The notes under the pieces are model-generated. The model searched no databases. It was not told where the DNA came from and saw only the letters and a list, made by a program, of their open reading frames with translations. Below are positions 26,310 to 41,428 of a stretch of DNA of 64,000 nt, in pieces. Every line of letters begins with the position of its first letter. Position 1 is the stretch's first letter. The stretch is from an uncultured Trueperaceae bacterium (GTDB lineage Bacteria; Deinococcota; Deinococci; Deinococcales; Trueperaceae), in contig CAVSGP010000004.1 in the NCBI GenBank assembly GCA_963727505.1, forward strand, positions 448,001-512,000. The letters run 5' to 3'. Both the position numbers and the translations under genes were made by a program.

Positions 26310-26376
26310 GGCGCCCGCGCCCCCTTGCGCCGCCGGCGGGGCGTGGTAACATGCGAACCCGCGACCGCGCGTGGAC

Positions 26377-26463
26377 GCCGAAGTGGCGGAATTGGTAGAC
26401 GCGCATGATTCAGGGTCATGTGACCGCAAGGTCGTGGGGGTTCAAGTCCCCCCTTCGGCACCA
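26377..26463 (+). tRNA. tRNA-Leu (anticodon CAG)
   Basis: GCCGAAG/CTTCGGC acceptor stem, anticodon arm CATGA-TTCAGGG-TCATG, long variable arm, GTTCAAGTC T loop, encoded CCA. Confidence 0.97.
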
Positions 26464-26464
26464 A
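26409..26464 (+). repeat. attL core (3' half of tRNA-Leu)
   Basis: TTCAGGGTCATG...CTTCGGCACCAA identical to 39158-39213. Confidence 0.95.
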
Positions 26465-26490
26465 GTCCTAGACAGGACAAACGGCAAATC

Positions 26491-26515
26491 GGGCGACCTT
26501 CCCCCAAGGTCGCCC
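26491..26515. terminator. Element-borne hairpin after tRNA-Leu (probable replacement terminator)
   Basis: GGGCGACCTT-CCCCC-AAGGTCGCCC 10-bp stem; no clear U tract. Confidence 0.5.
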
Positions 26516-26731
26516 GCAGTCGTTGTGTGCCTATAGTGTGCCGGGATCAGCCCCGACTCGAACGACCGCCTTGTGGGCCCTCGCTCGAGAACCCCAGAGC
26601 GCTTGGGCACTGCGCCAAGAGCCAGAAACCACGCCCTGGACACTGTCAAGGCTAGCGACGGGGAGTTGCGAAGCCCTATGATTAGGAGATCGGCAGGCAA
26701 GCGGTCACCAGCCGGCCGAGATCGGAGCCAT

Positions 26732-27022
26732 ATGTTCGGTGAGACGATGACACTTGAGGATGTTGTAGGAAAGCCCCAGGTCCTTGGAACACTGATGCCA
26801 AACGCTGGAGGTTGGTATGGGCGACGGTTCGATGCGACCTTCGACGTCTTGCGCCTCGCCGACCTAGCCCTCTTGCGGACGCTGGAACCGCGTCAACGCG
26901 TCACAATCCGTAGCAGGATGGAAACTGACCGTGAAGAGCGCTTTTTCGCCGCCTACGTATGGCCAGACAACTGTCTTGTCGAGCTAATTGGGTGCGGCGC
27001 TCCCACCTCTTCGTCTATCTAA
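26732..27022 (+). CDS. Hypothetical protein (element)
   Basis: 96-aa ORF with GGAG upstream; convergent 39-bp overlap with the integrase end; no motif. Confidence 0.35.
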   Translation: MFGETMTLEDVVGKPQVLGTLMPNAGGWYGRRFDATFDVLRLADLALLRTLEPRQRVTIRSRMETDREERFFAAYVWPDNCLVELIGCGAPTSSSI

Positions 27023-28117
27023 GCCGAATCCACCGAGCATCCGATCGACAACGTCGCTGGCATCGCGCTGCAGACTCGGGAGGACGTGGCTGTAGGTGTC
27101 CAGTGTGATCTGGATGGTTGAGTGGCCGAGGCGCTCACTCACGACCTTGGGATGCACGCCGGCCAACAGGAGCAGCGAAGCGTGCGTATGCCGCAGATCG
27201 TAGAGCCGCAGGTCGAGCGGGAGCTCGGCCCGCTTGAGGGCCGGCTTGAAGTGGTGCTCTACCAGGGCACGCTGGCAGTAAGGCTCGCCGGAGAAGTTCG
27301 TGAACACCAGCTCGCCATCACGCACGTGGTCCGCTAGTAGGCTCACCAGGCCGTCGGGCAGGTCGATCTGGCGCTTCCCCTTCGCCGTCTTCGGCGGATT
27401 GAACACCCACCGACCGCCCACCTTTGACGCGGTGCGCTGGACGTGAAGGCGCCGGCCGATGAGGTCGACATCGCTCCACTTCAATCCTGCGGCCTCACTA
27501 GGGCGCATGCCGGTCCCGAGCAGGGTTGCCAGAAGCACTCGGTAGGGATCGCTCTCGATCGCTTCGAGGAAGCTACCAGCCTGCTCCTGGTCCAGCGTGC
27601 GCATCTCGTGCTGCTGTTGCCTCGGCAGGTCGACGGCGTCCGCTGGGTTCACGCGCAGCATGCGCCACTTGACGGCTTGCTGCAGCGCGTTCCGGAAGAT
27701 GGCATGCGTGAGTCTCACAGTGCGGGCTGAGAGGCCCCTGTCGAGCATCTGGCCGTAGAGGCCCTGGATCTGCAGCGGCGTGATCTTCTCAAGCCTGCTG
27801 GCGCCCAGCACGGGCGTCACGTACCGCTCGAGCGTCTCCTCGTATTGGTTGTACGTGCGCTCGCGGAGGCGTGGCTTGGCGGCCGCCCGAAGCCAGTGTT
27901 CGAGGTACTCGTTGAGCGTCTGCGGGTTGGCCTTGCTGAGCTCGCCGGCATCGTTCTTCACGAGGAGCTTGTTCAGGACGCGCTGAGCGTCCTTGTCGGT
28001 GCCGCGAACGGTTTGGTTGTAGTACTGGCGCTTCCCTGTGCCGTCGGCGCCGAGGTAGATGCGCACGACAAACGTGCGGTCGCCGCGGTCGATGATCTGG
28101 CCGGCTCTACGGGCCAT
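26984..28117 (-). CDS. int: Tyrosine recombinase/integrase
   Basis: N-terminal arm-binding-like region, TGMRPSEAAGLKW, PPKT, YDLRHTHAS, ERLGHS..ITLDTYSH; adjacent to attL. Confidence 0.96.
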   Translation of the reverse strand: MARRAGQIIDRGDRTFVVRIYLGADGTGKRQYYNQTVRGTDKDAQRVLNKLLVKNDAGELSKANPQTLNEYLEHWLRAAAKPRLRERTYNQYEETLERYVTPVLGASRLEKITPLQIQGLYGQMLDRGLSARTVRLTHAIFRNALQQAVKWRMLRVNPADAVDLPRQQQHEMRTLDQEQAGSFLEAIESDPYRVLLATLLGTGMRPSEAAGLKWSDVDLIGRRLHVQRTASKVGGRWVFNPPKTAKGKRQIDLPDGLVSLLADHVRDGELVFTNFSGEPYCQRALVEHHFKPALKRAELPLDLRLYDLRHTHASLLLLAGVHPKVVSERLGHSTIQITLDTYSHVLPSLQRDASDVVDRMLGGFGLDRRRGGSAAPN

Positions 28118-28119
28118 GC

Positions 28120-28332
28120 TTACCGCTCCTTCGGGACGGCGACGAGCTCGAGGTCGAGGGCGTCGAGAACCTTGAGCCAGGTCTCGGGAATCTTGCCGAC
28201 GTGGCCGGTCATGAGGCGGCTGACATATTGGGACTTCATGCCAACGAGTTGGGCGAGGTCGCCTTGCTTGAGGTCGCGTTCGGCAAGTCGGACGCGCACG
28301 GCTCGGCGGATCTGGTCGTTCATGGCTGCCAT
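28120..28332 (-). CDS. XRE-family HTH regulator upstream of int
   Basis: LAERDLKQGDLAQLVGMKSQYVSRLMTG HTH; GGAG RBS; 2-bp gap to int. Confidence 0.85.
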   Translation of the reverse strand: MAAMNDQIRRAVRVRLAERDLKQGDLAQLVGMKSQYVSRLMTGHVGKIPETWLKVLDALDLELVAVPKER

Positions 28333-28786
28333 GTTCTCACGTCTCCATTCCTCGGTTATCACTTTACCACTATCTGTTGACCACTGTAACTGTAAGGGGT
28401 ACACGCCAGCGTCTCCGGAAGGAGGAAATCAGGAGCGCGGTCCGCCAAAATGGCGCAACCAACTTGTCAGGGATCGAGTTCCATGCCGTGCCGGGTCACC
28501 TGCCGTGAGCGAACGCCCGGACTTATAGTCTGAGGCATACCGAGACCAGTTCACCAACGACCGAAGGGGGGATGGCGATGCTGGGTTCTTTGTTCCCGTT
28601 CACCAAACGAGTTGCTCGCGGAGGCTATGCGATTCGGCTTGGTGCGTTCGTCGCAATCGGACCAGCTTTGGACGCCCTAGGCGAAGCCGGACCGCGCTCA
28701 CAAGGAGACGAGCTGCCCGTTTCTCCGAGCAGGACGGGCGCGGAGAGGTTGTCAGCAAGCGCCAGTTCCACCGACGCGACGGGCGC

Positions 28787-29266
28787 TTGAGTCGGATGGC
28801 CAGGGTTCTGCGGACCGTCTTGGGGGCTTTCGGGCTCCTCCTTTTCCTATTCGTAGCTGCGTTCATGTACAGCGAAGGGTTCCGCGACTGGGTCTTGGGT
28901 GCGACAGCCCACCCCGAATATCAGGGCTTCCCAGACTCGGAACTTCACGCTTCGTTGGCATCTGCAAGAGCGTGGTCCATGCTCTCAGGCAAGGAACGCG
29001 GGTCCATTGGCGAGTTCCAAATGCGCTCGTCGCGCGGACCCGTCACGGCACGATTATGCAAACAATATGGGGGGTTCCCGTTCTTCGGCATCGTCAGCTA
29101 CAAGTTCCTTGAGGAATACGGCCACGGCGTTAATCTTGTTCAGGACAGTAAATCGGGTGAGGTCTACTTGAGCGTCGGATTCGGTCAGTATTCCCCTGAT
29201 CTGCTCGGATCGTTCCTCGGCACGCAGGAGGTCGGAGCTTGCCTATACCGAGTGACGAGCCCCTAG
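28787..29266 (+). CDS. Hypothetical membrane-anchored protein (cargo)
   Basis: N-terminal hydrophobic helix, no recognised motif; start uncertain. Confidence 0.55.
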   Translation: MSRMARVLRTVLGAFGLLLFLFVAAFMYSEGFRDWVLGATAHPEYQGFPDSELHASLASARAWSMLSGKERGSIGEFQMRSSRGPVTARLCKQYGGFPFFGIVSYKFLEEYGHGVNLVQDSKSGEVYLSVGFGQYSPDLLGSFLGTQEVGACLYRVTSP

Positions 29267-29435
29267 CAAGGGAGAGTATGAACCCGTTCGGTGAGCTCCG
29301 CGGCGTAAGGGAACTGAGTTAGTAGAGAAACCTAGCCCGCGCTATGGGTTGAGCGCCGTGAATGGGCGCTTGAGAAAGCCCACACCATGCTGGCCTCCCC
29401 TATGGTGGATTGAAAGAACCAAAGGGGGGATACCA

Positions 29436-29681
29436 ATGCTGAACAAATGGAAGCTCTCTACCATCGTCCTGGCCGCGGTCCTGGCCGGCTTTCTTCTGGC
29501 TCAAGTGACGGGAATGGGCTTCGTCACCGCACAGTCCGGAAGCATCGCGAAGGTCCAGCTCGACACGAGCAATTGCGGGTATGGAATCGCGATAGACCCT
29601 CTTCCATCAGGGGCGTTCGTCGTGCAGGGGCAAACAGACCAATACGGCCGGAACATGTACGTCTACAACGTCTGCAAGTAG
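29436..29681 (+). CDS. Small exported protein (cargo)
   Basis: AAAGGGGGG RBS, signal peptide MLNKWKLSTIVLAAVLAGFLLA, two Cys. Confidence 0.65.
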   Translation: MLNKWKLSTIVLAAVLAGFLLAQVTGMGFVTAQSGSIAKVQLDTSNCGYGIAIDPLPSGAFVVQGQTDQYGRNMYVYNVCK

Positions 29682-29757
29682 GCCTCGCGCAACGGTCGCT
29701 CTAGAGTGTCGATTAGACTTGTCAGGGCTGTCACGTAGGGGGGGGCGGGCGGGAACC

Positions 29758-30039
29758 ATGACCTTCATTGTCTTTTGGATCATCGCTGGCATCGTTGTGG
29801 CGCTCATCGCCAACTCGAAGGGCCGCAGCGGCTGCGGATGGTTCATCTACGGCTTCCTGCTTTGGCCAATAGCTCTCGTACATATCCTCGTGTCGCCTCC
29901 GAACCAGAAGACGGTCGAGACGCGCGCCCTTCGGAGCGGAACGCAGAAGAAGTGCCCTCACTGCGCTGAACTCATCAAGGCGGACGCCAAGGTCTGCCGC
30001 TATTGCGGCCGAGACGTCGGAACAGTTCCCACGGAGTAG
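29758..30039 (+). CDS. Membrane protein with C-terminal zinc ribbon (cargo)
   Basis: IANSKGRSGCGWFIYGFLLWPIAL TM hairpin; KKCPHCAELIKADAKVCRYCG. Confidence 0.85.
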   Translation: MTFIVFWIIAGIVVALIANSKGRSGCGWFIYGFLLWPIALVHILVSPPNQKTVETRALRSGTQKKCPHCAELIKADAKVCRYCGRDVGTVPTE

Positions 30040-30126
30040 GTGCCCCGCACAAATGGTCCTCTTCACCACATCGCGTACTGGCGTGTGCACTTGAGGTATT
30101 CGAGAATGATGAGATTGGGGGCAAAT

Positions 30127-30804
30127 ATGCGTGTCGGCTTGAGCCTTCTCGTTTGCATGTTCGCAGCATCCGCGCTCGCTCAATCGAATTGGACGTCCTA
30201 TCGCACTCTCTCAAGCGATTACCTCCTTTACATACACAACGACTCAACCGGCGCGGGAACGTTCCGTGATGTCGTCTATCTCTCCACCAAAGCCACCATC
30301 GGCGACCAGTTAGTGCATAGAGGGTCTGAAGGATTCTCGACCCCCCAGGTGCACGTGTTCCACTGCGAGGACTGGACATTCGAGGGCGTCCTGAACGGCT
30401 CTTTGATCATCTCCCGATCCGCTTTCACAATCACGCGTTTGACCACAGTGGCAAGCGACAAGGTCGTGCTTGACCCATTCCTTAAGGCGGCGGTCGGTAC
30501 GGAGGATTGGGGCAGGTCGCTTGTATCCCTTTGTTCGCGCTCCTATGTATCCGACAACCAGGTCTCAACCGACAGCCTGTACGTCCCTTTGCCCACGACG
30601 CCTGGGACACAGATAAGACTGAATCCCTCGGGCTGGTCTTCGGGCTTCTTGACTTTCATTTTCGATGCGAAGCTTAACGAGCTGGACCGCTTCCCTGCAC
30701 TGAATCGGAAGCAAGACCTTGGTTCAGGCTCACATCTGTCTCCCCTTGCAAACTGTTTTGGGAGCCCGCTCTGCGGGGAGACGGCGCGCGCCTCTCATCT
30801 GTAG
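30127..30804 (+). CDS. Exported hypothetical protein (cargo)
   Basis: Signal peptide MRVGLSLLVCMFAASALA-Q; no recognised domain. Confidence 0.55.
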   Translation: MRVGLSLLVCMFAASALAQSNWTSYRTLSSDYLLYIHNDSTGAGTFRDVVYLSTKATIGDQLVHRGSEGFSTPQVHVFHCEDWTFEGVLNGSLIISRSAFTITRLTTVASDKVVLDPFLKAAVGTEDWGRSLVSLCSRSYVSDNQVSTDSLYVPLPTTPGTQIRLNPSGWSSGFLTFIFDAKLNELDRFPALNRKQDLGSGSHLSPLANCFGSPLCGETARASHL

Positions 30805-30967
30805 CTGATCGCTCGGGCCGTGGCGTTTCGCGGTTTGGTTCGCGCGCAATTAGCTCATGCCACGGATCTTCTTCCTTTGGCCTTGGCAACCGCCTCGCAA
30901 CCCTCCGGGACGCATACTTGACTTCCTCCGCGCGTAATGGCCCGCGCTGTCTCCTCGCAGAGCGGGC
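30764..30967. repeat. 29-bp imperfect inverted repeat pair enclosing 146 bp
   Basis: GCCCGCTCTGCGGGGAGACGGCGCGCGCC (30764-30792) versus reverse complement of 30939-30967; 3 mismatches. Confidence 0.85.
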
Positions 30968-31214
30968 AAACTACACATGGCAGCCGATCACCTCGACCTC
31001 TACCGGGTCCGGCGTCGGGTGCCGGTTTATCCCATGCGCTGCTCCTCATCACCGCGCGACCCGCGGCCCACATGTGTCGCTGCGCAACCCCTCGCTCGGT
31101 GCTACGCTCGGACTTGACGCCAACAGGCCCATTGGCCTCAACTGTCATGCCAAATGTCACGGTGATGGTCGTGCATTGCAGTAAGGGACTGGGCCGCAAA
31201 GGGGGAATCCACAC

Positions 31215-31862
31215 ATGAAGAGACTTTGGGTATTGGCTGGATTGGTGCTGGGCCTGGCGCTGCTCGCCGGTTGTAGCACCGTGAACGATGCCGGGAACGG
31301 TGCTGGCCTCCGACTGCAATCGGTCGAGACCACTCCCGGCTACCTGGGTAACCCGGTCGGCGGAACCCAGGTGACTTCCGGCTTGAATGCCGCCGACGTG
31401 ATGCCGAGCACGAACCAGAAGAACTTCGACAGCACTGACTATGCGTATGTGGAGCTCGTCAGCGCTGACATCGGGCAGGTGACACTCAAGTTCGTCAGCC
31501 GGCACAGCTACGCTTCCTGCTTCGAGTACCGCATCGACGACGAAGCCCCCACCTCCACATCAAACGGCGGCGCCAACTACAACCCCGACGTCGCAGACGG
31601 GATGTGGAATTTCACCTGCCTCACCGGCGGTAGCATCGCTACCCCGGCGGAAACGACCAAAACGGTCGCCGCCAGTGACCACGTCGATATTCGCATGGTG
31701 TTCGGAGCCGAGACCAACGAACGATTCGACTGGACGCGCTTCTACCCGTTGACACTGGACAGCATGGACCAGTGCAAGAACGGAGCGTGGGAAGGCTACG
31801 GATTCAAGAACCAGGGACAGTGCATCGCTAGCATCGTTGCCAACCCCAACTCCGGCCACTAA
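31215..31862 (+). CDS. Lipoprotein (cargo)
   Basis: AAAGGGGG RBS, lipobox LLAG-C, C-terminal DQCKNGAWEGYGFKNQGQC. Confidence 0.8.
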   Translation: MKRLWVLAGLVLGLALLAGCSTVNDAGNGAGLRLQSVETTPGYLGNPVGGTQVTSGLNAADVMPSTNQKNFDSTDYAYVELVSADIGQVTLKFVSRHSYASCFEYRIDDEAPTSTSNGGANYNPDVADGMWNFTCLTGGSIATPAETTKTVAASDHVDIRMVFGAETNERFDWTRFYPLTLDSMDQCKNGAWEGYGFKNQGQCIASIVANPNSGH

Positions 31863-32263
31863 CGCCGGATTGCACAGGCACTTCTCGAACACACCGTGAC
31901 GAGGACTGAGCGGACGGCCAGGAGCAGGATGCCTGGCCGTCCGATACTGGCCAACTCGATGCCGGCGCTTCGGCCACCTAAGTGATTCAGGGGAACGTGT
32001 CCAGCGCGCGGCCCCAGTCTTGCCACCTCAGCGTTTGCATGGGCGAACGGCGAGCGAACGAGGCCCAATTGCCACCAACTCGATGGAGACCTGGTGCGGC
32101 GAAGAGCGATTGGCGCACCAGACGCCGAGCGCATCGGCGTGGCACGGGAGCCACCGTTCGTCGCTTCCGGACCGGCACCACCCTGCCGCCAGCGTCCGTC
32201 TCTGGAACGCGAGTCTTCCGTCTGCCATGCGCCACCCGACAGCGGGAGCCGCAGCGGGCGCCT

Positions 32264-32926
32264 TCAATGCGGCCCATACCCAATCGCGCGGCGCACCGTC
32301 TCCGGGTCCGCGATCGGGTGCCGCTCCGGCCAATACAACGCGAGCGCCGTAGCCAGCACCAGGTCGTCGTGCGGGTTCTCCCGCCAGTCATTCCCGTACG
32401 TGTCATGACCGCGAGCGTTGAGCTTCACCCGGAACGCCAGCATCTCGTCCCTGAGCACCTGAGCCAGCGACAAGTCGCTCTGTACGCGCAACACGCCCTT
32501 CTGAAGCGCCACCTGCAGGCGTGACACCAGATCGCGCTTCGGGACGCGATGGTAGCCGTCCGTGGAGGTGGCCGCGTCCCCGCCCGTGATGGTCACAGCC
32601 TTCGGCTTGAGGCCCGCCTGCCGCAACAGGTCGACCACGGGCCGGCCGACACCCGTCGCATCCACAATGAGCGTCACATCGCCGTCCCAATAGGTGCGCC
32701 CGTCAAGGTGCATCGGCGCTCCCATCAGCCGCTTGATGATCTCCCCCACCCGCTCCACCTGATTGGGGTAGGACGTTCCGAGCGGCAGGCGCTCGAGATG
32801 CCCGAGGCGGTACAGTCGCGGCTTGCTCACGTCAGGATGCTCGACCTTCTCCACGACGCTGATGGCCGTGTAGTCGTTGGCCTGGCCGAGGTCAACGCCC
32901 ATGAAGAACTTGCGGGAACGCTTCAT
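32264..32926 (-). CDS. Terminase large-subunit nuclease (RNase H-like) domain as a stand-alone gene
   Basis: MGVDLG..NDYTAI, IVDATGVGRPVVD, HDDLVLATAL; own GGAGG RBS and ATGA overlap with the ATPase gene. Confidence 0.85.
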   Translation of the reverse strand: MKRSRKFFMGVDLGQANDYTAISVVEKVEHPDVSKPRLYRLGHLERLPLGTSYPNQVERVGEIIKRLMGAPMHLDGRTYWDGDVTLIVDATGVGRPVVDLLRQAGLKPKAVTITGGDAATSTDGYHRVPKRDLVSRLQVALQKGVLRVQSDLSLAQVLRDEMLAFRVKLNARGHDTYGNDWRENPHDDLVLATALALYWPERHPIADPETVRRAIGYGPH

Positions 32927-33681
32927 GCCGAGGCCTCCAGGAACGGCTCGAAACCGTCGTCCATCGCGGCTTGCACGAGCTCGTAGTTGAAGACTTGATC
33001 ATCGGCGTCGCTGAAGACGCACATGTACTCCTGCTGATACCGCCAGAGCGGCATGCTGGCCTTCTCCTGCTCGAGGAACGACGCGCTGATGCGGGGAATG
33101 TCGGTTGCCGGCACCTCGGTGCGCGTCCAGCCGGTCGCCTCGCTCCACAGCTCCCAGAAGTGCCGAAGCTTGCCCCACGGCGTGCTCATCAGGACCATGC
33201 GGCCGTTGGAGACGGCGAGCATGGGCCGCATCGCGGCGTGAATATCGTCTTCCACCCAGGCGGCCTCATCCTCCACGATGAGCGTCGGAGCGGAGAAGCC
33301 GCGAATGGTGGCGTCCGAGCCCGGGAGGGCGGCCACGCGTCCGCCGTTCCTCACCGTCCAGGAGAGCTTGTTGTCCTCCGAGAGGTCGGGCTTGCGGGGG
33401 AGCAGCTCGGCGAACTCCTTGACCTTCCGGAACAGCTCGCTGCTCTGCCGCTGCGACGGGCTCACGATGAGCGTCAGACTCTTCGGGACGTAAAGACTGG
33501 TATGTAGACCTAGCACCGCGGCGAGGGTACTCTTGCCGCCCTGCCGCGTGACATTGATGAGGTCGCGCTTGCTGTCGCTCGTGAGCACCTTCCGCTGCCA
33601 CGGGTCGAGCTTGAGCCCGAGCACTTCCTCAGCGAACGCCGCGCGATCCAGCGCGTACCTGAAGTCACTCGCTAGGCTCAT
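32923..33681 (-). CDS. Terminase large-subunit ATPase domain as a stand-alone gene
   Basis: LDPWQ adenine-binding motif, TRQGGKS Walker A, LIVEDEAA Walker B, LMSTP motif III, YQQEYMCVF. Confidence 0.9.
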   Translation of the reverse strand: MSLASDFRYALDRAAFAEEVLGLKLDPWQRKVLTSDSKRDLINVTRQGGKSTLAAVLGLHTSLYVPKSLTLIVSPSQRQSSELFRKVKEFAELLPRKPDLSEDNKLSWTVRNGGRVAALPGSDATIRGFSAPTLIVEDEAAWVEDDIHAAMRPMLAVSNGRMVLMSTPWGKLRHFWELWSEATGWTRTEVPATDIPRISASFLEQEKASMPLWRYQQEYMCVFSDADDQVFNYELVQAAMDDGFEPFLEASA

Positions 33682-34147
33682 GGTTCTCCAGCGCGTGCAT
33701 GACCGCCACGCGCGCCTCCGGGAACGGCTGAAGGGCGCCCATCAGGTCCGCCCGGAGCGCGATCCACTGGTTGCTCACCGTGATGTTGACGGTCGTGCCG
33801 GTCTGCAGCTCACCAAGCATCTTCGCGAGCAACTCGAGATTGCTCCTAGCCTCCTTGATGGCCAGCAGCGCGGTCTTATGGTCGCCGGCGCTCTTGCTCT
33901 TCGCGAGGATGCCCTCCGCCTCGCTCTGCAGGCCCCGCACCTTCGCCAACAGGTCATCGGCGTTCGTGTTCGCCGCGGTCGGCGCGCCCGCCATCTCCGC
34001 CACCATGCGGTCCTTGTGCCTGTGCACGGCGCTCTTGCTGAGCCTGAATGCCTCCGCCACCTGCCGGACGGGCATGCCCCTGGCGAGCGCCTCCTCGACC
34101 TCCCTGCGCTTCGGATGCGTCGTGATGGTCGTTTGGCTCGCGCTCAC
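33665..34147 (-). CDS. Terminase small-subunit-like HTH protein
   Basis: HPKRREVEEALARGMPVRQVAEAFRLSKSAVHRHK HTH plus helical body; overlaps the terminase ATPase start. Confidence 0.7.
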   Translation of the reverse strand: MSASQTTITTHPKRREVEEALARGMPVRQVAEAFRLSKSAVHRHKDRMVAEMAGAPTAANTNADDLLAKVRGLQSEAEGILAKSKSAGDHKTALLAIKEARSNLELLAKMLGELQTGTTVNITVSNQWIALRADLMGALQPFPEARVAVMHALENHEPSE

Positions 34148-34276
34148 GCCTGCCACTCCACACGCAGCTCCTCGAGCGCGACGGGGCTCACGTCACGCCC
34201 GCCATTAACGCCCGAAACGCGGCGTACAAATGACCATCCAACAGCCACCCCGCCGCACGAAGCTTCCGACGCAGCC

Positions 34277-34915
34277 TCACGCCAACTCCTCCTCCGGATC
34301 CACGTCCGGGGAAAACAGTCCGGCCGTGTTCCGAATCGCCGCCAAAGCCCTGAAGCGCCCACCGAAATCATGCGAGAGCCACACCGGCACATTGGAGTTC
34401 CCCCGCTGCAACGGCTCAACGTCCGCCCCGACAACCCCGCGCGCCAGCTGCTCATTCGCGTCGCCGCCATGCTTACCCGCCAACCGCACAGCCGCCGACG
34501 TGGCACGGTGAAACTCCCGATTAGCCCGCTCACTCAAGTGCTTCGACAACGTCACCGCGCGCCGCACCGACGCGTCAGCCGCCTCCATCACCGCGTACCA
34601 CTGCGCCTCAGCCTCCCGATAAGCAACCGACCCCGCAGCGACCTCCGCCAGCTCCCGCTCGTCCTCCGCGACTGACTCCAGCCCGGCGAGCTCCGCCTCG
34701 ACCTCCGCGATCTCCTCGCGATGCTGCGCCAGCATGGACTCGACCGCATCCCGACGGGCCCGCAGGTCCGCGACCTCGTCGATGTCCACGCCACCGGACT
34801 TCGCCTCCCGATACTCGCGGTCGCGCTTCGCAAGCAACGCTTCCAACCGCGGCTCATCCGAACGCAGCGCGTCCAGCGTCTCGCTCGTGCTCTTGAGTTC
34901 CGTCTTCGTGCTCAC
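34277..34915 (-). CDS. Coiled-coil hypothetical protein (element)
   Basis: GGAGG RBS, GTG at 34915; long Glu/Ala/Leu/Arg heptad-rich helix. Confidence 0.7.
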   Translation of the reverse strand: MSTKTELKSTSETLDALRSDEPRLEALLAKRDREYREAKSGGVDIDEVADLRARRDAVESMLAQHREEIAEVEAELAGLESVAEDERELAEVAAGSVAYREAEAQWYAVMEAADASVRRAVTLSKHLSERANREFHRATSAAVRLAGKHGGDANEQLARGVVGADVEPLQRGNSNVPVWLSHDFGGRFRALAAIRNTAGLFSPDVDPEEELA

Positions 34916-35076
34916 GGCTCCACCTCCAGAAAGTTGTTGCTCTCCAGGTACGCGTTGACTTTCTCCGAGGTCTTCCCTCGAAGCGCCTGCAGCTCTTCCG
35001 CCGTCGCCCTCCTCGACTTCCACTGGTAGCCCTTGGCCTTCGGCTCGCTCCGCTCGTCCTTCTGCTGGTCGCTCAT
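34912..35076 (-). CDS. 54-aa hypothetical protein (not in ORF track)
   Basis: GGGAGG RBS; MSDQQKDERSEPKAKGYQWKSRRATAEELQALRGKTSEKVNAYLESNNFLEVEP; stop overlaps next GTG. Confidence 0.65.
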   Translation of the reverse strand: MSDQQKDERSEPKAKGYQWKSRRATAEELQALRGKTSEKVNAYLESNNFLEVEP

Positions 35077-35086
35077 GCTTCCTCCC

Positions 35087-35119
35087 AAAGAAAATGGCCC
35101 GATCTCTGCGACCGGGCCA
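35087..35119 (-). terminator. Terminator-like hairpin upstream of the packaging operon
   Basis: Minus strand TGGCCCGGTC-GCAGA-GATCGGGCCA followed by TTTTCTTT. Confidence 0.65.
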
Positions 35120-35154
35120 CCAGCGGCTTCTACAGTCCCAAGCGTACATTCGCG

Positions 35155-35583
35155 CTAACTCGCGCTAACGCCGTACTTCCGGCGCAACCGCTCGACCTCC
35201 GCCTCGGGCACCAGCCAGCCCGAACGGTTATCGCCCCGCCGGCCCTTCCGAGCGTCGATCAAGCCCTCTCGGCACTGCCACGTAAGCGTCGAGTACGGCA
35301 GGCCCGTCAACTCCTGGACCCCCTCGAGCGTGTACTCCCTCGGCGCGGCCGGCGCCCGCTGCCAGGACGGCGTGTAAGCCCGCTCACGAGGCGACACGAA
35401 GCTCGGATGGGCACTGCGTCGCGCGGGCCCCGAGGGGCGGCCGTAGAGCACCCTGACCGCCTCTGAGGGGCCATCATCCGCCGATACCATCCAGACTTCG
35501 CAGGCGTCACAGTATAGCGGCGCTCGCGTCGGGGTGGATGCCCCCTGCCCGCACTCAGGGCACACGTACCGGTTCACTTCCAA
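35155..35583 (-). CDS. Zinc-finger plus MerR/Xis-like HTH protein
   Basis: CPECG...CDAC; YTLEGVQELTGLPYSTLTWQCREGLI...WLVPEAEVERL. Confidence 0.75.
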   Translation of the reverse strand: MEVNRYVCPECGQGASTPTRAPLYCDACEVWMVSADDGPSEAVRVLYGRPSGPARRSAHPSFVSPRERAYTPSWQRAPAAPREYTLEGVQELTGLPYSTLTWQCREGLIDARKGRRGDNRSGWLVPEAEVERLRRKYGVSAS

Positions 35584-35897
35584 CCCCCAGAGCGCGCCAG
35601 GAGCTCTAAGAGGTCCGCGAGTCTCAGCACGGCGAACATCTGCGACTTCGAGCCGCGCCGTGACTCCACCAGCACGACCCCGTCCGTGCCCTCGGGTGGC
35701 GTCAGGAACTCCGCTAGCTTGGCTCTCGTCTTCACCTGCGCGCGCATGTTGCCCACGAGTACGTCGACCGTCTCGGAGTGCCCCAGCGACCGGCCATCGC
35801 TTCCGCGAGCTCTGACCGCCGGCAGGCCAGCCTCGGACGCGGCCCGAACCACCATCCGCTCGCCTCGATCGCCCTTCCTTTTCGACGGGTGAGCCAT
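35574..35897 (-). CDS. Holliday-junction-resolvase-like PD-(D/E)xK nuclease
   Basis: SKRKGDRGER, VDVLV..AQVKTR, FAVLRLADLLELL. Confidence 0.7.
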   Translation of the reverse strand: MAHPSKRKGDRGERMVVRAASEAGLPAVRARGSDGRSLGHSETVDVLVGNMRAQVKTRAKLAEFLTPPEGTDGVVLVESRRGSKSQMFAVLRLADLLELLARSGGWK

Positions 35898-36192
35898 CAA
35901 GCCCACCGGCCTTCGCGCACTATTCGCACACTGGCAGCACCAGGCGAGCATGACCGCAAGCGCCAACATGCGCGCCTGACGCCACTATTCGCCAGCTCTG
36001 CCTGAGGGGTTCGACAGACTAGTAGTCTGTCCGAGCCTTCGTCCCGCTGGACTGTCGACGTCCCACCTCTTGGCCCGAAGCGCGCCAGCCGACGGAAGCT
36101 AGTCCCACTCGGCGCCGCTGAGGACGCGATATTCGCGCCCTTTGGCTCTCCACCGTCCCACAAACAAGAGCCCACGCACTCTCGTCCAACGG

Positions 36193-37419
36193 TCATGCGC
36201 TGTGCTCCTGAATGAGACTACGCAGGCGCGCCCTATCTTCAGTGGTGGCGCGATCCTTCGAGAAGATGGCGGTGAGTTCGTCCTGGGCGTCGGTTCCTTG
36301 GAACTCGCCAGCTATCCATTTCTTGTGGAGGTTCTTGACTTCCTCTGGAGTATCCCCATTCACAGCGTTCACAGGGGGGTTTGGTGTGAATGCCTGTGAA
36401 TGAGAGGGGTCTGTGCCGTTCACAGGGGTTTGCGCTGTCTCTGTCGCATCTTCTAGCACGCTGTGAACAAGGTGAACGATAGAGTAGTTGCCTTTGTCGT
36501 CACTGGCGAGCATGCCTTCGTTGCGCATGCGGATGAGAAGGTGGCGTGTGCTGTCGCGTTTGAGTGTTGCGGCTTCGGCGATTTCCTTTGGAGTGAGGCC
36601 TTCCGGGGCTTCCTCTAGAGCCCGGAGGATGGCTCTGCGTTCTTGCGAGAGGCTCCATTCGCGCGCAGAGCCGAGGACTTGCCAGAGCCCGGTGTGATTG
36701 TCGAATTGGAGGGCGAGCTCTCGGTCCTCGACATCTCTGCCGGTGATGTGCATGGTGGCGTCGGCGTCGCCGCGGGTTCGTTTGATGACGATCATTCCGT
36801 CTAGAGGTCCGGTGATGCCGTAGCTGCCGGATATCTCCTCGAAGGGATCGGCTCCTTGTGACTTCCGTGTGTGGTGGACGAGGAGGATGCATATGTCGAA
36901 CTCTTTTGTGAGCGCTTGGAGTTCTGAGACCATCCTGCTGTCGCCGCTATATAGGTCTTCGCTCTTGATGCGTTGGCCGCGGATTCGGACGAGCGTGTCG
37001 ATCGCGATGACTTTGGTGCTGGGGTGGTCTTGGATCCATTTGCGTAGTGCCTGTATGAGCCCGCGGTCCAGGCCAGGTGCTTCGGTGAGCATGTGGAAGG
37101 TGGTTGGCCAGCCGGTTTCGTCGGCTCCGAGGAATTGCAGCCGGGTTCGGAGTCGCTGGCGTGTGTCCTCGAGCGCTAGGTACAGGACGCCTGCAGGCTC
37201 TACTGGGATCTTCCCGAAGGCGAGTCCGCCTGCGGCGACGCTGAGGAGGAGGGCGAGGACCCACCAGCTCTTGCCTGTCTTTGGTGGGGCGGCGAGAAGC
37301 CAGAGGCCGTAGGCGATGACGTCGGGCACGACCCATTGCTGGGGTGGTATCTCCATGTCGCGGAGGTCGTTGGCGGTGAACGTATGGAGGGTCGGCGGGA
37401 GGGAGCGGGGGCTTGGCAT
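36193..37419 (-). CDS. AAA_25/RepA-like replicative helicase with C-terminal wHTH
   Basis: LLAAPPKTGKSW Walker A, VLYLALED, IAIDTL, LVHHTRK, ISGSYGI, ITGRDVE. Confidence 0.88.
   Translation of the reverse strand: MPSPRSLPPTLHTFTANDLRDMEIPPQQWVVPDVIAYGLWLLAAPPKTGKSWWVLALLLSVAAGGLAFGKIPVEPAGVLYLALEDTRQRLRTRLQFLGADETGWPTTFHMLTEAPGLDRGLIQALRKWIQDHPSTKVIAIDTLVRIRGQRIKSEDLYSGDSRMVSELQALTKEFDICILLVHHTRKSQGADPFEEISGSYGITGPLDGMIVIKRTRGDADATMHITGRDVEDRELALQFDNHTGLWQVLGSAREWSLSQERRAILRALEEAPEGLTPKEIAEAATLKRDSTRHLLIRMRNEGMLASDDKGNYSIVHLVHSVLEDATETAQTPVNGTDPSHSQAFTPNPPVNAVNGDTPEEVKNLHKKWIAGEFQGTDAQDELTAIFSKDRATTEDRARLRSLIQEHSA
36359..36477. repeat. Iteron-like TTCACAG/CTGTGAA repeats within the helicase gene
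   Basis: Seven exact or near copies at 36359, 36368, 36384, 36394, 36419, 36461, 36470 in both orientations. Confidence 0.65.
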
Positions 37420-37772
37420 CAGATGTCCTCGCGGTCGGCCCAGCGGAGCATTCGTATTCGTGCCTCGAGGCCTCCGGAGAGCGCGTCCTCGATCAGCTCC
37501 CGCGCCCTGGTCTTGGCGAAGTGGCTGAGCTGAAGCCTGCCGGACTCCAAGGTCTTCTGCAGCCGCTCAATCTTTGCCCGGTCGTCGTCGTTGAGGGCGT
37601 GCGCCTTGGCGTAGGCGATGCCGAACAATGCCCAGCCCAGCCCAATCTGTTCGTGCTCGTTGAAGCTGTCACGGTTGGCGGCGTCGCGGAGGTACTCCAG
37701 ATCGACTTGTCGTGCTAGAGTCTTCCCGTACCCGTCGGTGCCGCGCCCCGCCTGCCAGCGGGGCTCTTTCAT
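37419..37772 (-). CDS. Hypothetical protein (element)
   Basis: 117-aa ORF with start/stop overlaps to both neighbours. Confidence 0.65.
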   Translation of the reverse strand: MKEPRWQAGRGTDGYGKTLARQVDLEYLRDAANRDSFNEHEQIGLGWALFGIAYAKAHALNDDDRAKIERLQKTLESGRLQLSHFAKTRARELIEDALSGGLEARIRMLRWADREDI

Positions 37773-38044
37773 GCCGGACCCTCTGCTGGCTCTTCCCTCC
37801 AGCCTCCAGGCAGTGCTTGGCCGCCGGATTCAATGAAGGCTCTCACGTCCTCTGGGCGGAATCTGACGTTGCGGCCGATCTTGACGCAGGGCAACAGGCG
37901 ACGGCGTGCATAGTCGTAGACGCTGCTGGGCGGGAGGTCGAGGATTTCGGCGACGTCTCTGCCGGAAAGCAAGTGCATGATGCCTGCGGTGCGGTGCCGT
38001 TCCTGTTGCGCATGCGTGTCGCGTCCCTCAGATACATTGGTCAT
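37769..38044 (-). CDS. Excisionase-like HTH_17 DNA-binding protein
   Basis: LLSGRDVAEILDLPPSSVYDYARRRLLPCVKIGRNVRFRPEDVRAFI; AAGGAGG RBS. Confidence 0.88.
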   Translation of the reverse strand: MTNVSEGRDTHAQQERHRTAGIMHLLSGRDVAEILDLPPSSVYDYARRRLLPCVKIGRNVRFRPEDVRAFIESGGQALPGGWREEPAEGPA

Positions 38045-38259
38045 GCAAACCCTCCTTGGGTTTGTGCTTGGGTGGAGGCGCTGTCACTCTTGGCGGAGAA
38101 GGCGCCTCCATCTGCTATTGGTTTCGGGCTGTTCGTGTCTGGCCGCAGCAAGCCGTCCTCCTTATGGTCTCACCATAGGGAGAAGAGCGGCCCGGTGTCA
38201 ATCGCAATAAGGGCGTCAGGGACGTGAAAAAGGGGTGTTTCTGCACCACCCGAAGAGGT

Positions 38260-39018
38260 TCATACCTTTTTTGATGGCCGGCCAGAGTCGCGCTTTGCCC
38301 GAGGAATGTCCAGCAACGTGGATGCGGCGTTCAAGGCTTGATTCACCGTTGCCTTGGACTTGTGCATCAGCACCTGCAACTCGCGGACGTCCACGCCACA
38401 GGTCTGGTACAGGACAAACCATTCGATATTGCGGCCGGTCGTGGAGGTCGTCAACGGCAGAGCGAGCCCTTCCTCCGCCAGGAAGGCCTCAAACCGGTCC
38501 ATGTATGCAGTCACTTGGCGTTCAAGTTCCTTCAAGGCTTGAGCCCTGAAGTTGTCGCGACCCTCGTTCCAAGCGAGCCGGTTCCATCCGACGATCGGCT
38601 CCGGCTTGAAGTCATACAGATCGTCTCTCGTGCGGTGGACGGCTATCCTTGGCAGTTCGCCCCAAGATTTGCCGGCAATGGCCGGTTCCTCGATCCAGAG
38701 GCACAGACTATCTAGGGCCTGGTCGCGGACCCAGCGGGCGTCGATGTTGTGCGCTTCGAGCGCGCGCGCGAGCGCAGCGGCAAACGCTAGAAAGCCTGCT
38801 TGGCCTTCCAATATGACTGCTACGTTCTCGTAGATAAGCCCTGGCCTTGAGAACTCCGCCCGCGTTAGGCCCGAAGCGCCTTCAAGAAAGCGCCTCAACT
38901 CTTTGAGCGGATCTCCAGCAAGGTCTCTCAGTACGTGAGGCGCGTGGCGCTCGACCCTTTCAAGAAACGTCGCCCGCGCGAATACCAGCTCGGCCTCGCT
39001 AACCGGTTCAGAGCTCAT
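38260..39018 (-). CDS. Hypothetical protein with C-terminal HTH-like segment (possible regulator)
   Basis: First gene inside attR; EWFVLYQTCGVDVRELQVLMHKSKATVNQAL and basic tail. Confidence 0.6.
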   Translation of the reverse strand: MSSEPVSEAELVFARATFLERVERHAPHVLRDLAGDPLKELRRFLEGASGLTRAEFSRPGLIYENVAVILEGQAGFLAFAAALARALEAHNIDARWVRDQALDSLCLWIEEPAIAGKSWGELPRIAVHRTRDDLYDFKPEPIVGWNRLAWNEGRDNFRAQALKELERQVTAYMDRFEAFLAEEGLALPLTTSTTGRNIEWFVLYQTCGVDVRELQVLMHKSKATVNQALNAASTLLDIPRAKRDSGRPSKKV

Positions 39019-39157
39019 GATCTTGTGTGCGAGTAGTGTGCCAACTCGGCGCCCTCTGCCATACTGACGCGAGCATAGCATACGGCCAGCCCTTTTCCCT
39101 TACGTCTCGGGCGCACTTCTCGGCCTATTCGTCCTCACCGGCCATACCTTTTAGCGT

Positions 39158-39213
39158 TTCAGGGTCATGTGACCGCAAGGTCGTGGGGGTTCAAGTCCCC
39201 CCTTCGGCACCAA
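39158..39213 (+). repeat. attR core (duplicated tRNA-Leu 3' half)
   Basis: 56/56 identical to 26409-26464; 5' half of tRNA absent. Confidence 0.95.
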
Positions 39214-39216
39214 TCG

Positions 39217-39260
39217 AATCAAGGGAAGGGCCCCGCGACGGCGGGGCCCTTCCCTTGATT
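39217..39260. terminator. Long hairpin; probable original tRNA-Leu/glyS terminator
   Basis: AATCAAGGGAAGGGCCCCGC-GACG-GCGGGGCCCTTCCCTTGATT perfect 20-bp stem. Confidence 0.85.
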
Positions 39261-39301
39261 GCCTCCAGCGTCGCGGCGAAGACCGTCGCGACCGAGCGGA
39301 C

Positions 39302-41428
39302 TCAGACTCCTTCGAGCTGGTCGAGCGCGCCGAGCTCCCGCAGGACCTCGGTCACCTCGCGCAACAGCGCCAGACGGTTGCTGCGCACCTCGAGCTCGTC
39401 GACCATCACCAGCACGTTGTCGAGGAACGCATCGAGCGGCGCCTTGAGCGCCAGCACGGCGCGTACCTCGTCGCCCAGCTCGCCCAGGGGCGTCGCGGGT
39501 GGAGACGCCAGGTCCCAGCCCGGCAGCGCCTCGCGCACCTGCGCGAGCAGCGCCTCCACCCCGCGGCGAGCGCCAGGCAGCGCCTCGAAGAGCGGCGCTT
39601 CGAACTCGTTGCGGAACAGGCCCGGCTTGACGTTGCGGCGGCGTTCCTCCTGGCGCGCCAGGTTGGCCGCGCGCTTGTACAGCGCCATCAGATCAGGGAA
39701 CCCCTCGTGCCCCATCAGCGAGCGCAGCAGATGCGCACGCCGCGAGGCATCGATCACGCTGCGGCTGCCCTGCACGGCGGCACGTACGACGGGGACGGGC
39801 ATGCCCTGCTCGTTGAGGAGCGAGCCGACGCGGTCCCAAAGGAAACGCTCCACCTCGGCCTCCCCCTCGGCCGGGATGTCCAGGCCGTTGGCCCGATGGG
39901 GGGCGGCGCCCTCGAGCACCACATCGGCGAGCGGCAGGCGCCAACCCTGCGCATTGAGGACTCGCGCGATGCCGAGACCGTCACGCCGGAGCGCGAAGGG
40001 ATCGGCCGAACCGGAGGGACGCTTGCCCAGCGCGAAGAAGCCCACCACCTTGTCGATGCGATCCGCAACCGCCAGGACCGCGCCGATACGTGTGGCGGGT
40101 AGCCGGTCACCCGGCCCGCGCGGCAACACGCCGTCCTCCAGCGCCACCGCGACCTCCTCGGGAAGACCCTCGGCCAGAGCATAGGCCCGCGCCATCACCC
40201 CTTCCAGCTCGGGCAGCTCGAACACCATGTCGGTGGACAGGTCGGCCCGGAAGATCGGCAGCGCCTGGTCCAGCGATGCCCGTTCCTCCCTGGGGAGATC
40301 CAGCACCTCAGCGAGACGCCCGGCCACGTCGCTGACGCGCGCGATCTTGTCGGCCATGCTCCCGAGTTCCTTCTGGAAGCCGATGCCCGACAGGCCCCAG
40401 GCGTGCTGCGACATGCTCTTGCGGCGGTCGGCGTCCCAGAAGAAGCGGGCGTCGTAGAGCCGGCCTTCGAGCACCTGCTCGTAACCCGCCCGCACCACGT
40501 CTTCGTTGGTCACACGATTGTTGGAGATCCCCACGAAGAAGCTCGCCAGGGCGCCGTCGGCGGCGTGGGTCGGGAAGAAGCGCTGGTGGTGGATCATCAC
40601 CGTGCTCAGCACCTCGTCGGGGAGCTCCAGGTAGCCTTCGTCGAAGCGACCGAGCACCGCCACCGGGTACTCGACCAGGTTGCACACCTCGGCGCGCAGC
40701 GCGGGATCGTCGTGCGCGACGAGCCCTTCCCGGCCCGCCGCCTCGCTGGCGGCGCGCCAGGTCGCCTCGTCTCGTTCCTCGGGGTCGGCCAGCACCCACG
40801 CCTCCCGAAGGACGTCGACGTACGTCGTAGCGTGGCGCAGACGCACCTCGTCCGGCGCCAGGAAGCGGTGGCCGCGGGTGGTCGCCCCCGAGCGCACGCC
40901 GGCGGCCTCGAGCTCCAGGACCGTGTCGTCGAGCATGGCCAGCAACCAGTGCACGGGCCGCATGAAGGGCGTGCTCACGTCGGCCCAGCGCATCTTGCGC
41001 GGTGCCGGCAGGTCCTCCACGAGCCCGGCCAGCAGCGCGGGCAGCACGCCGGAGGCGGAGTCGCCGCCCCGCTGGAAGCGCGCGAAGACGTAGCGTCCGC
41101 GCTCGGTGTCGCGGATCTCCAGGTCGCCGGGCTCGACGCCGCTGGACTGCGCGAAGCCGCGCGCGGCGCGGGTCGGCGCGCCGCTATCGTCGAAGGCCAC
41201 CTCGGCGGCGGGCCCGCGCCGGAGCTCTTCGCGGGTCTGGCTGCGCTCCGGCAGACCCTCGGCCAGCACCGCCAGGCGCCGTGGGGTGCTGAAACCGCGC
41301 ACCTGCTGCGCGGCCAGGCCGGCGTCCGCCAGCCGCTCCTCGAGGAGCTGCGCCAGCGCGGCGCGCCCCTCGTCGACGTACCAGCTCGGCAGCTCCTCGG
41401 TACCGATCTCGAACAGCAGGTCGGGCAT
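39302..41428 (-). CDS. glyS: Glycine-tRNA ligase beta subunit
   Basis: LLFEIGTEELP, TPRRLA, RPVHWL, VEYP, HHQRFFP, ELPELEGVM, SGSADPFALRR, C-terminal DALR-like NRLALL. Confidence 0.95.
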   Translation of the reverse strand: MPDLLFEIGTEELPSWYVDEGRAALAQLLEERLADAGLAAQQVRGFSTPRRLAVLAEGLPERSQTREELRRGPAAEVAFDDSGAPTRAARGFAQSSGVEPGDLEIRDTERGRYVFARFQRGGDSASGVLPALLAGLVEDLPAPRKMRWADVSTPFMRPVHWLLAMLDDTVLELEAAGVRSGATTRGHRFLAPDEVRLRHATTYVDVLREAWVLADPEERDEATWRAASEAAGREGLVAHDDPALRAEVCNLVEYPVAVLGRFDEGYLELPDEVLSTVMIHHQRFFPTHAADGALASFFVGISNNRVTNEDVVRAGYEQVLEGRLYDARFFWDADRRKSMSQHAWGLSGIGFQKELGSMADKIARVSDVAGRLAEVLDLPREERASLDQALPIFRADLSTDMVFELPELEGVMARAYALAEGLPEEVAVALEDGVLPRGPGDRLPATRIGAVLAVADRIDKVVGFFALGKRPSGSADPFALRRDGLGIARVLNAQGWRLPLADVVLEGAAPHRANGLDIPAEGEAEVERFLWDRVGSLLNEQGMPVPVVRAAVQGSRSVIDASRRAHLLRSLMGHEGFPDLMALYKRAANLARQEERRRNVKPGLFRNEFEAPLFEALPGARRGVEALLAQVREALPGWDLASPPATPLGELGDEVRAVLALKAPLDAFLDNVLVMVDELEVRSNRLALLREVTEVLRELGALDQLEGV

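Follow-up and report, generated by a model that had tools for sequence, protein, structure and literature searches.

The window analysed here is a 64,000-nucleotide (nt) stretch of DNA from an uncultured Trueperaceae bacterium (Deinococcota; Deinococci; Deinococcales), taken from GenBank assembly GCA_963727505.1, contig CAVSGP010000004.1, positions 448,001-512,000 of the forward strand. It contains an integrated island in which two overlapping genes encode the ATPase and the nuclease of a large terminase subunit (TerL) as separate proteins. TerL is the textbook example of an enzyme whose motor and nuclease form a single chain, and both the communication between its domains and the identity of the domain that contacts the portal are still argued. 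We consider it probable that the locus as a whole represents a naturally split TerL, composed of two subunits and carried by a probable phage satellite.

The two terminase genes and their junction

The gene pair and its boundary are located as follows (lengths of proteins are given in amino acids, aa).

32923..33681, minus strand: TerL ATPase subunit, 252 aa, with matches to Terminase_6N, phrog_7579 and the structures 2o0h and 4zni
32264..32926, minus strand: TerL nuclease subunit, RNase H-like, 220 aa, with matches to Terminase_6C, phrog_27743 and the structures 5m1f and 5tge
32923..32938, minus strand: junction with the stop/start overlap ATGA (32923-32926) and the motif GGAGG (32934-32938), read from the sequence and from a contig of the public run X3

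The ATGA of the junction appears on the plus strand as tcat at 32923-32926, and within it the nuclease start codon (ATG, 32926-32924) overlaps the ATPase stop codon (TGA, 32925-32923). The plus-strand CCTCC at 32934-32938 corresponds to the minus-strand GGAGG, with a spacing of 7 nt to the nuclease ATG. The original prediction, made from the bare sequence, had described this two-gene anatomy, with its ATGA overlap and a GGAGG belonging to the nuclease gene itself, and it is confirmed in this respect. All seven motifs that it named are also present: the ATPase contains LDPWQ, RQGGKS, EDEAA and STP, the nuclease GVDLG, DATGVG and HDDLV; in the family alignments they fall on invariant or near-invariant columns. 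A scan of positions 31700-35400 for promoters and terminators gave a signal count not above that of shuffled sequence.

The junction was checked against Logan contigs of four public sequencing runs. A contig of X3, a run of a second study, spans 32815-33067 with zero differing letters and zero gaps, and no insertion or deletion at 32923-32926 is listed in the public-run contigs that cover the junction.

The ATPase matches the Pfam family Terminase_6N (3.1e-11, 43.8 bits against a cut-off of 22) and, from end to end, phrog_7579, which is annotated as "terminase large subunit" (239 positions, 2.6e-54). It resembles the ATPase of T4 gp17 (2o0h, 4.6e-13) and that of P74-26 TerL (4zni, 2.2e-07). 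The protein carries RQGGKS, LIVEDEA and STP, which we take to be the Walker A motif, the Walker B motif with the catalytic glutamate, and the coupling (C) motif, so that the set of motifs expected of a TerL ATPase is complete. The invariant columns comprise R46, Q47, G49, K50 and S51, D138, E139 and A140, and S166, T167 and P168.

The nuclease matches Terminase_6C (4.2e-05, 24.0 bits against a cut-off of 22.6) and, again from end to end, phrog_27743 (233 positions, 2.4e-34). A search of the PDB with the single sequence reached a best E value of about 0.05; significance was reached with the family profile, which matches the TerL nuclease domains of G20c and P74-26 (5m1f, 5tge) at about 2e-07 over positions 6-188 of 208. 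This match brings the aspartates of GVDLG and VDATGVG, as well as the HDD motif, into register. Residues D12, D89, D187 and D188 are invariant in the family alignment, and the conserved acidic metal ligands of an RNase H-like nuclease are thus in place. NCBIfam has no model above its cut-off for either half. In PHROGs the nuclease family is labelled "unknown function", and the sources that name the protein call it a "hypothetical protein"; because it has neither a functional label nor an NCBIfam model above cut-off, annotation pipelines overlook half of the terminase.

Conservation of the split among relatives

Protein searches were run in a collection of 5.8 billion proteins. The ATPase gave 1416 matches at E <= 1e-10 within a length range of 138-441 aa; every one of the best 120 has between 232 and 284 aa. 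For the nuclease, 8000 candidates of 121-385 aa were scored, of which 7208 matched at E <= 1e-05, with the best 120 all measuring 197-260 aa; only 47 of its relatives have at least 386 aa, the best of them at 49% identity. A further search, run with no length limit, covered 1.84 billion cluster representatives, and the best 150 of these together with the window ATPase comprise 122 split forms, 23 fused forms and 6 fragments.

At the DNA level, 85 loci were compared, 5 of them genomic and 80 metagenomic (the best 80; 551 of 600 candidate stretches encoded a relative). The ATPase open reading frame (ORF) stops and the nuclease ORF follows directly in 74 of the 85, and a fused gene was found in none. 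In the remaining 11 loci the ATPase either runs off the contig end (5) or is followed by at most 207 nt after its stop codon (6). Instead of the single polypeptide of an ordinary TerL, two ORFs are therefore found here and in all 74 evaluable relatives.

The way in which the two genes meet varies considerably. The nuclease frame is shifted by +2 against that of the ATPase in 42 of the 74 loci and by +1 in 23, and in 9 both genes share one frame (0); each of the three stop codons ends the ATPase in some of these loci. Counted from where the ATPase stop codon ends, the nuclease start (taken by the script as the one nearest that stop) falls between -31 and +28 nt overall and between -13 and +9 nt in 68 of the 74 loci. 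A 4-nt overlap (ATGA, GTGA or TTGA) occurs in 22. Since the junction has been rebuilt in many ways and yet stays split, the split is a selected state.

Several relatives depart from this simple arrangement. The halves lie apart in two large viral contigs: in L121 (9920-13001) a gene for an HNH/EndoVII-type endonuclease stands between them, and in L128 (9890-19305) the nuclease gene lies 7.8 kb downstream of the ATPase. Two full-length nuclease genes follow the ATPase in tandem in L055 (10745-12026) and L103 (7093-8302), and in L053, L060 and L088 a second copy is located about 1.2 kb upstream of the ATPase. Among the longer nuclease relatives, P0264 and P0287 contain Hint/intein Pfam domains, P0262 is fused to a serine recombinase and P0272 to ABC ATPase domains. 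The source name of P0250 and P0256 is a Halobacteriota archaeon, and the nuclease family may thus reach into archaea.

Selection and fused relatives

Both genes evolve under purifying selection in the family. The ratio of nonsynonymous to synonymous substitution rates (dN/dS), determined for 40 pairs of loci, ranges from 0.016 to 0.251 for the ATPase and from 0.063 to 0.308 for the nuclease wherever dS was computable (unsaturated). Divergence is markedly unequal between the halves in certain pairs, for example L046/L069/L039/L058/L050 and L034/L031: the ATPases share 82-88% identity and the nucleases 95-97% (with lower nuclease dS), or the ATPases share 97% and the nucleases 85%. Such unequal divergence hints at recombination between the two genes.

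Nucleases of the same type also occur in fused chains, namely in 9 of the 23 fused representatives and in P0241, P0242 and P0245; in 14 fused relatives the nuclease profile of the split family misses the C-terminal part. When mapped on P0241, the ATPase aligns through its residue 252 to fused residue 254, and the nuclease aligns from its residue 7 to fused residue 258. Fused chains read D-V-x-P-L, then about 8-10 residues, then F-x-G-V-D-L-G. By this alignment, the cut lies in the interdomain linker and no residues are lost. On a FastTree phylogeny of 145 ATPases, fused and split forms are interspersed, with 16 changes in the most parsimonious reconstruction, at least 3 of which are forced by well-supported branches. 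A search of 50,697 deposited phage genomes with the nuclease matched 4 records only, all of them fused TerL proteins at 25-32% identity, and the split lineage is therefore essentially absent from cultured phages.

Some points count against the two-chain terminase reading or limit the data behind it. The closest cultured phages, MMP7 and MMP17 (of Meiothermus) and Riverbug (of Thermus), show 42-46% identity to the ATPase and have a fused TerL of 415-417 aa. The 40 pairs used for dN/dS are mutually non-independent and exclude the window's own copy, whose closest relatives are the proteins P0002 and P0122 (86% and 76% identity); only 11 of the 142 inner branches of the ATPase tree are well supported; and the choice of the start nearest the ATPase stop biases the 68 closely spaced junctions toward small gaps.

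The original prediction had called the arrangement evolved and not a lesion, and had proposed the conservation of the split position and dN/dS on both genes as checks. Its claim holds: the split is seen in each of the 74 evaluable relatives, in differing frames and with differing spacings, both halves stay below 0.31 in the 40 pairs, and the junction is reproduced by independent contigs. Its statement that the ATPase ends at the domain boundary is borne out by the alignment to fused relatives such as P0241. It had also named, as an outcome that would speak against it, close homologues that are uniformly fused; this is not the case for the closest relatives, the top 120 for each half being half-sized, and it is the case for the closest cultured phages. 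We are highly confident that this is a genuine, old and selected split with a wide distribution.

A recent frameshift or indel in the one-chain TerL of a decaying prophage, or an assembly error, can practically be dismissed: the fused TerL of the closest cultured phages and the lack of head genes in the island, as expected of a remnant, would fit it, but the 74 split relatives show three frames and many spacings, a PHROG profile of half length is matched by each half from end to end, neither half reaches a dN/dS of 0.31 in the family, the nuclease gene comes with an ATG and a GGAGG of its own, and the contig from the other study crosses 32815-33067 without differences or an indel at 32923-32926.

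Programmed recoding, in which a frameshift or stop read-through would yield a fused TerL, is very improbable. It would agree with the ATGA overlap, which places the two frames in a -1 relation, and with the 9 in-frame loci, where a single stop codon separates the ORFs. However, the relative frame varies among loci (+2, +1 and 0 in 42, 23 and 9), so there is no conserved recoding signal, and inspection of the window sequence upstream of the ATPase stop revealed no slippery heptamer. In L121 and L128, moreover, the two halves are separated by other genes.

A probable single enzyme from two chains

The ATPase and the nuclease were submitted together to complex prediction, and three runs scored 0.75, 0.75 and 0.73, whereas the best control reached 0.22; the mark used for this score is attained by 116 of 157 solved complexes and by 2 of 215 mismatched pairs. 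The three runs share at least 83% of contacts, and the pLDDT (a per-residue measure of model confidence) of the partner is at least 76. The predicted interface is formed by ATPase residues 224-248, with 169-172 and 210-214, and nuclease residues 134-169, 42-43 and 24-26. A tail motif, (D/E)(V/I)xP(L/M)F, is found in the ATPase of 98 of 120 close homologues. A caution applies to these models, since the complex score may echo solved one-chain TerL structures, and halves of a split gene can pass in this way.

That the nuclease start falls within -13 to +9 nt of the ATPase stop in 68 of 74 loci suggests that the two proteins are made in a coupled and roughly equimolar manner. Together with the interspersed fused and split forms and the predicted docking, this tight gene coupling argues for one enzyme, and we consider it likely that the halves form one. 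The pair would most likely be the two-chain equivalent of an ordinary one-chain TerL, a putative non-covalent complex with presumed enzymatic activity.

The fold-model check suggested in the original prediction thus gave a predicted docking (0.75 against 0.22 for the best control), while its proposal that the split allows a separate stoichiometry or a separate role of the nuclease found no support in the gene coupling, the scattered fused forms or the docking. Such a division of labour, for instance with the nuclease acting alone on helper DNA (interference) and the ATPase alone as the motor, is unlikely. The only hint toward a separate nuclease role comes from the few loci with extra nuclease genes (L055, L103, L053, L060 and L088); as regards separate roles or stoichiometries in general, the sharply different divergence of the halves in some locus pairs would also fit, and excerpts of one study (PMC7672431) describe a phi29 ATPase that packages DNA with a merely vestigial nuclease domain. 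These points are set against the tight coupling in 68 of 74 loci, the predicted docking through a conserved ATPase tail, the presence of fused forms with the same nuclease type among split ones, and complete phages that have the pair as their only terminase, adjoining the portal gene.

The TerS-like gene

The gene directly upstream of the ATPase is a candidate small terminase subunit (TerS).

33665..34156, minus strand: TerS-like protein, 163 aa, with an N-terminal helix-turn-helix (HTH) and a long helical hairpin; 17-nt overlap with the ATPase start

Homologues of this protein were found in 73 loci, and in 71 of them the gene lies directly upstream of the ATPase. The AlphaFold2 model shows the HTH followed by the long hairpin (pLDDT 82.5). 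Pfam matches of the HTH remain below cut-offs, and no recognised TerS family was matched in Pfam, PHROGs or NCBIfam. A Foldseek search of the model against the PDB gave nothing at E <= 0.001, with G20c TerS (4xvn) at E 2.5, and VIA-align (wide) returned generic helical-hairpin matches with Z up to 9.3.

Members of the family carry an N-terminal C-x2-C-x-H and a later H-x2-3-H, which together have the look of a zinc site beside the HTH. In the window protein, both cysteines of the motif are replaced by threonine.

The island and its genome

The gene pair is located within an element that is bounded by a tRNA gene and a repeat of its end, and that contains the following features.

26377..26463, plus strand: tRNA-Leu (CAG), the integration target (ARAGORN), whose 3' part forms the left repeat copy (attL, 26409-26464)
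26984..28117, minus strand: tyrosine integrase, 377 aa (Phage_integrase 4.5e-23, Phage_int_SAM_3 1.1e-13)
28120..28404, minus strand: Xre-type HTH regulator, 94 aa (HTH_3 2.8e-05), directly upstream of the integrase in the same orientation
28787..31862, plus strand: cargo block of five ORFs (28787..29266, 29349..29681, 29719..30039, 30040..30804 and 31215..31862), from ORFs and translations
34277..35149, minus strand: coiled-coil protein, ORF of 290 aa with a true start probably later, no Pfam family
35155..35583, minus strand: HTH_17-type DNA-binding protein, 142 aa (HTH_17 0.001, below cut-off)
35574..35969, minus strand: possible Holliday-junction resolvase, 131 aa (weak matches: phrog_244, RusA-like, 1.4e-06; Hjc 3.5e-04, below the NCBIfam cut-off)
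36193..37419, minus strand: AAA_25 (RepA/DnaB-like) ATPase with a C-terminal winged HTH, 408 aa (AAA_25 7.2e-30, HTH_IclR 8.5e-07)
37419..37772, minus strand: ORF for a 117-aa protein, no family named
37769..38044, minus strand: HTH_17 protein, excisionase/AlpA-like, 91 aa (HTH_17 6.9e-13)
38260..39081, minus strand: 273-aa protein with no Pfam, PHROGs, NCBIfam or PADLOC family
39158..39213, plus strand: right 56-nt repeat copy (attR), 100% identical to the left copy

The spacing of these perfect 56-nt direct repeats defines an island of 12,749 bp, with a GC content of 0.59-0.67 in the island stretch against about 0.70 in the flanks. Homologues of the integrase occur in 16 related loci, and homologues of the coiled-coil protein stand upstream of the TerS-like gene in L010, L011, L015 and L016. 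The AAA_25 ATPase also matches primase/helicase families of PHROGs and is likely, by these family matches, to be a replication initiator or helicase. From their N-terminal sequences, the cargo products look like membrane, secreted or lipoprotein-like proteins. Their only Pfam match is a zinc ribbon in 29719..30039; no PHROGs family was matched by the other four ORFs, which were the ones scanned, and no PADLOC family by any of the five. PADLOC found no defence system among 13 island proteins, with weak matches to SspC (3e-04, coiled coil) and mad1 (1.7e-05, HTH).

No capsid, portal, protease, tail, lysis or adaptor family was found among the island proteins in Pfam and PHROGs, a few small ORFs being searched in one of the two libraries only. 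The genome contains one copy only of each terminase half. In G004, a genome of the same genus, the tRNA directly abuts the right flank and the site is empty, and none of the 9 further genomes of the genus contains a match to the nuclease family, from which we conclude that the island was inserted recently.

The contigs of the four runs contain neither a contig joining attL to attR nor a circular junction. Over 25500-40000, the summed contig depth in X3 and X4 is 20-58 on the flanks and 0-4.7 across the island, and contigs of both runs diverge from the reference at 26454, near the end of the tRNA. Island-free relatives could dominate these samples, contig depth being no proof of this.

The same build in other loci

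The surroundings of 28 split loci, the window included, were annotated. No capsid or portal family appeared in the scans of 21 of them, 12 of which have an integrase. Portal and/or head genes lie nearby in the other 7: L090, L092, L093, L102, L119 and L121, which are viral contigs of 34-87 kb, and L115. In L090, L092, L093, L102 and L119, portal and major-head genes follow the split TerL, which lends indirect support to a presumed role in ATP-driven DNA translocation and end-making cleavage at a portal. By gene content, the split terminase also serves complete uncultured phages and is not specific to satellites. L109, L110 and L128 enter these counts as unbounded loci.

L115 is a contig of 9,773 nt with a 127-nt terminal repeat, and it encodes the split TerL together with a portal (phrog_533, 3.2e-45), a major head protein (phrog_267, 1.3e-63), a primase-helicase and regulators, and showed no tail genes. 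It looks like a complete mini-element and, in the genes it encodes, resembles a capsid-forming satellite. In L088, a capsid-less locus, a Mu-type transposase (rve + Mu-transpos_C_2, 6418-7914) stands in place of a tyrosine or serine integrase.

Two loci from genomes of the host's family, L147 and L148, show the order ATPase, nuclease, a few cargo genes, Xre, integrase and tRNA. In L146 the integrase lies about 1.2 kb downstream of the nuclease, with no tRNA in the stretch scanned. Terminal exact repeats are present in the capsid-less contigs L011 (9,908 nt), L096 (11,694 nt) and L091 (15,218 nt), which look like complete circles. The island build recurs across many taxa, with contig GC contents of 0.37-0.69. 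By annotated gene content, the window island is one of a recurring class of elements that have no capsid genes and retain the packaging enzyme alone. Seen across these loci, the split is, on the available genomic record, an old and selected state of a large lineage that includes complete uncultured phages, mini-elements with portal and capsid, and capsid-less islands.

Comparison with known systems

The nearest one-chain TerL proteins of the Terminase_6N/6C (T4 gp17) type, those of the Thermus phages P74-26 and G20c and of MMP7, MMP17 and Riverbug, have the same ATPase fold family, the same motifs and an RNase H-like nuclease, and they likewise follow a gene of small-terminase type. They differ from the window in being one chain of 415-417 aa, in contrast to two chains of 252 and 220 aa from overlapping genes. 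The window nuclease is about 30% identical to their TerL, as compared with 42-46% for the ATPase.

The island shares with phage-inducible chromosomal islands (PICIs) and the Staphylococcus aureus pathogenicity islands (SaPIs) a small tRNA-integrated build with an integrase, HTH regulators, a replication ATPase, a TerS-like gene and cargo, and a lack of structural and lysis genes, as far as the consulted portions of the literature describe them. The core of PICIs has been defined, in the sections available of one study, by five components, TerL not being among them (PMC10085698). PICIs carry TerS only, or a packaging-redirecting protein, and use the TerL of the helper, whereas the window island encodes in addition a complete TerL in two pieces. 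According to the same sections, capsid-forming PICIs (cfPICIs) are distinguished by head-tail adaptor and connector genes together with terL (PMC10085698). The window island is like a cfPICI in being a candidate satellite with its own TerS-like gene and TerL, and its relative L115 has portal and major head genes; it differs in that the scans run revealed no capsid, portal or adaptor family, so that the capsid-forming and head-tail adaptor or connector genes of a cfPICI were not found. It fits neither the PICI nor the cfPICI set.

The element NitKor-E1 of Thaumarchaeota has TerS and TerL as its sole virus-like genes, and the part of the report consulted calls the role of the terminase enigmatic and the element likely a relic (PMC6563490). 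It is similar to the window island in being integrated, with a tyrosine integrase, a terminase pair and no other virion genes. In contrast, that part of the report gives a single case and does not mention a split TerL, while the build seen in the window recurs in many loci under selection.

A full-text search, with supplementary files outside its scope, turned up neither a TerL family that is divided where its domains meet nor capsid-less satellites with a whole terminase. Papers on a "terminase ATPase subunit" and "endonuclease subunit" were considered as a precedent and rejected, these being P2-type names for large and small subunits. The island with its split pair is a TerL variant on one side and a candidate phage satellite on the other.

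A proposed mechanism and its main alternative

In the proposed mechanism, the ATPase motor and the RNase H-like nuclease would be made as separate chains from overlapping, translationally coupled genes, and the conserved tail at the C-terminus of the ATPase would hold the nuclease by non-covalent contacts. Like a one-chain TerL, the pair would cleave DNA concatemers and drive the DNA through the portal. The procapsids of a helper phage would be filled with the island's DNA, so that the island would be a phage satellite equipped with a full terminase of its own. Since the genome contains no match to the families tested for capsid and portal (below), any helper must be external.

Four points pull in the other direction. 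Phage_capsid (PF05065) and Phage_portal (PF04860) are unmatched in the whole genome, which is 97% complete. Gene position and general shape are all that suggests the TerS identity of the upstream gene product. The window copy of that product lacks the CxxC, reading T-I-T-T-H where 36 of 41 aligned members have CxxCxH. Finally, Pfam was the only library used to screen 11 of the capsid-less loci, and divergent head proteins can escape it.

The main alternative sees the island as what is left of a decayed prophage, or as an integrative element of non-viral nature in which the module serves some other purpose, with a terminase that is functional as a family. This reading has a small chance of being correct. 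It would account for a genome with no helper and no capsid or portal family and for the loss of CxxC from the TerS-like protein, and Krupovic et al. (2019) considered a thaumarchaeal island whose sole virus-like genes are TerS and TerL a likely relic (PMC6563490). On the other side, the att repeats are perfect and the integrase is intact, the insertion is recent (the G004 site is empty and the other 9 congeners lack the nuclease family), all family-invariant residues are kept, the build recurs in many taxa, and the capsid-less contigs with terminal repeats look like complete circles. On balance we lean toward the island being a satellite with a presumed dependence on a helper.

Significance of a two-chain terminase

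A TerL in two chains may offer its carriers a flexibility that one chain does not. Motor and cutter could be swapped separately by recombination, so that the portals of new helpers would be matched while recognition of the island's own DNA would be kept; a separate exchange of this kind is hinted at because the halves diverge unequally between related loci. Tentatively, we suggest that such islands form a widespread, previously undescribed class of satellites that lack shell genes, carry their own TerS-like protein (in most members with an HTH that looks zinc-binding), ATPase and nuclease, load helper procapsids, and could exchange the two chains separately, although this broad reading is more doubtful than that of the single island.

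For the study of packaging, a two-chain TerL that is represented by thousands of sequences and used by phages would mean that each part could be expressed, labelled, mutated and titrated separately. Known satellites bring a small terminase only, remodel the capsid of the helper, or form a capsid of their own. If the capsid-less islands are indeed satellites, they would represent a new strategy of hijacking, in which the whole terminase is brought along and only the shell is taken from the helper.

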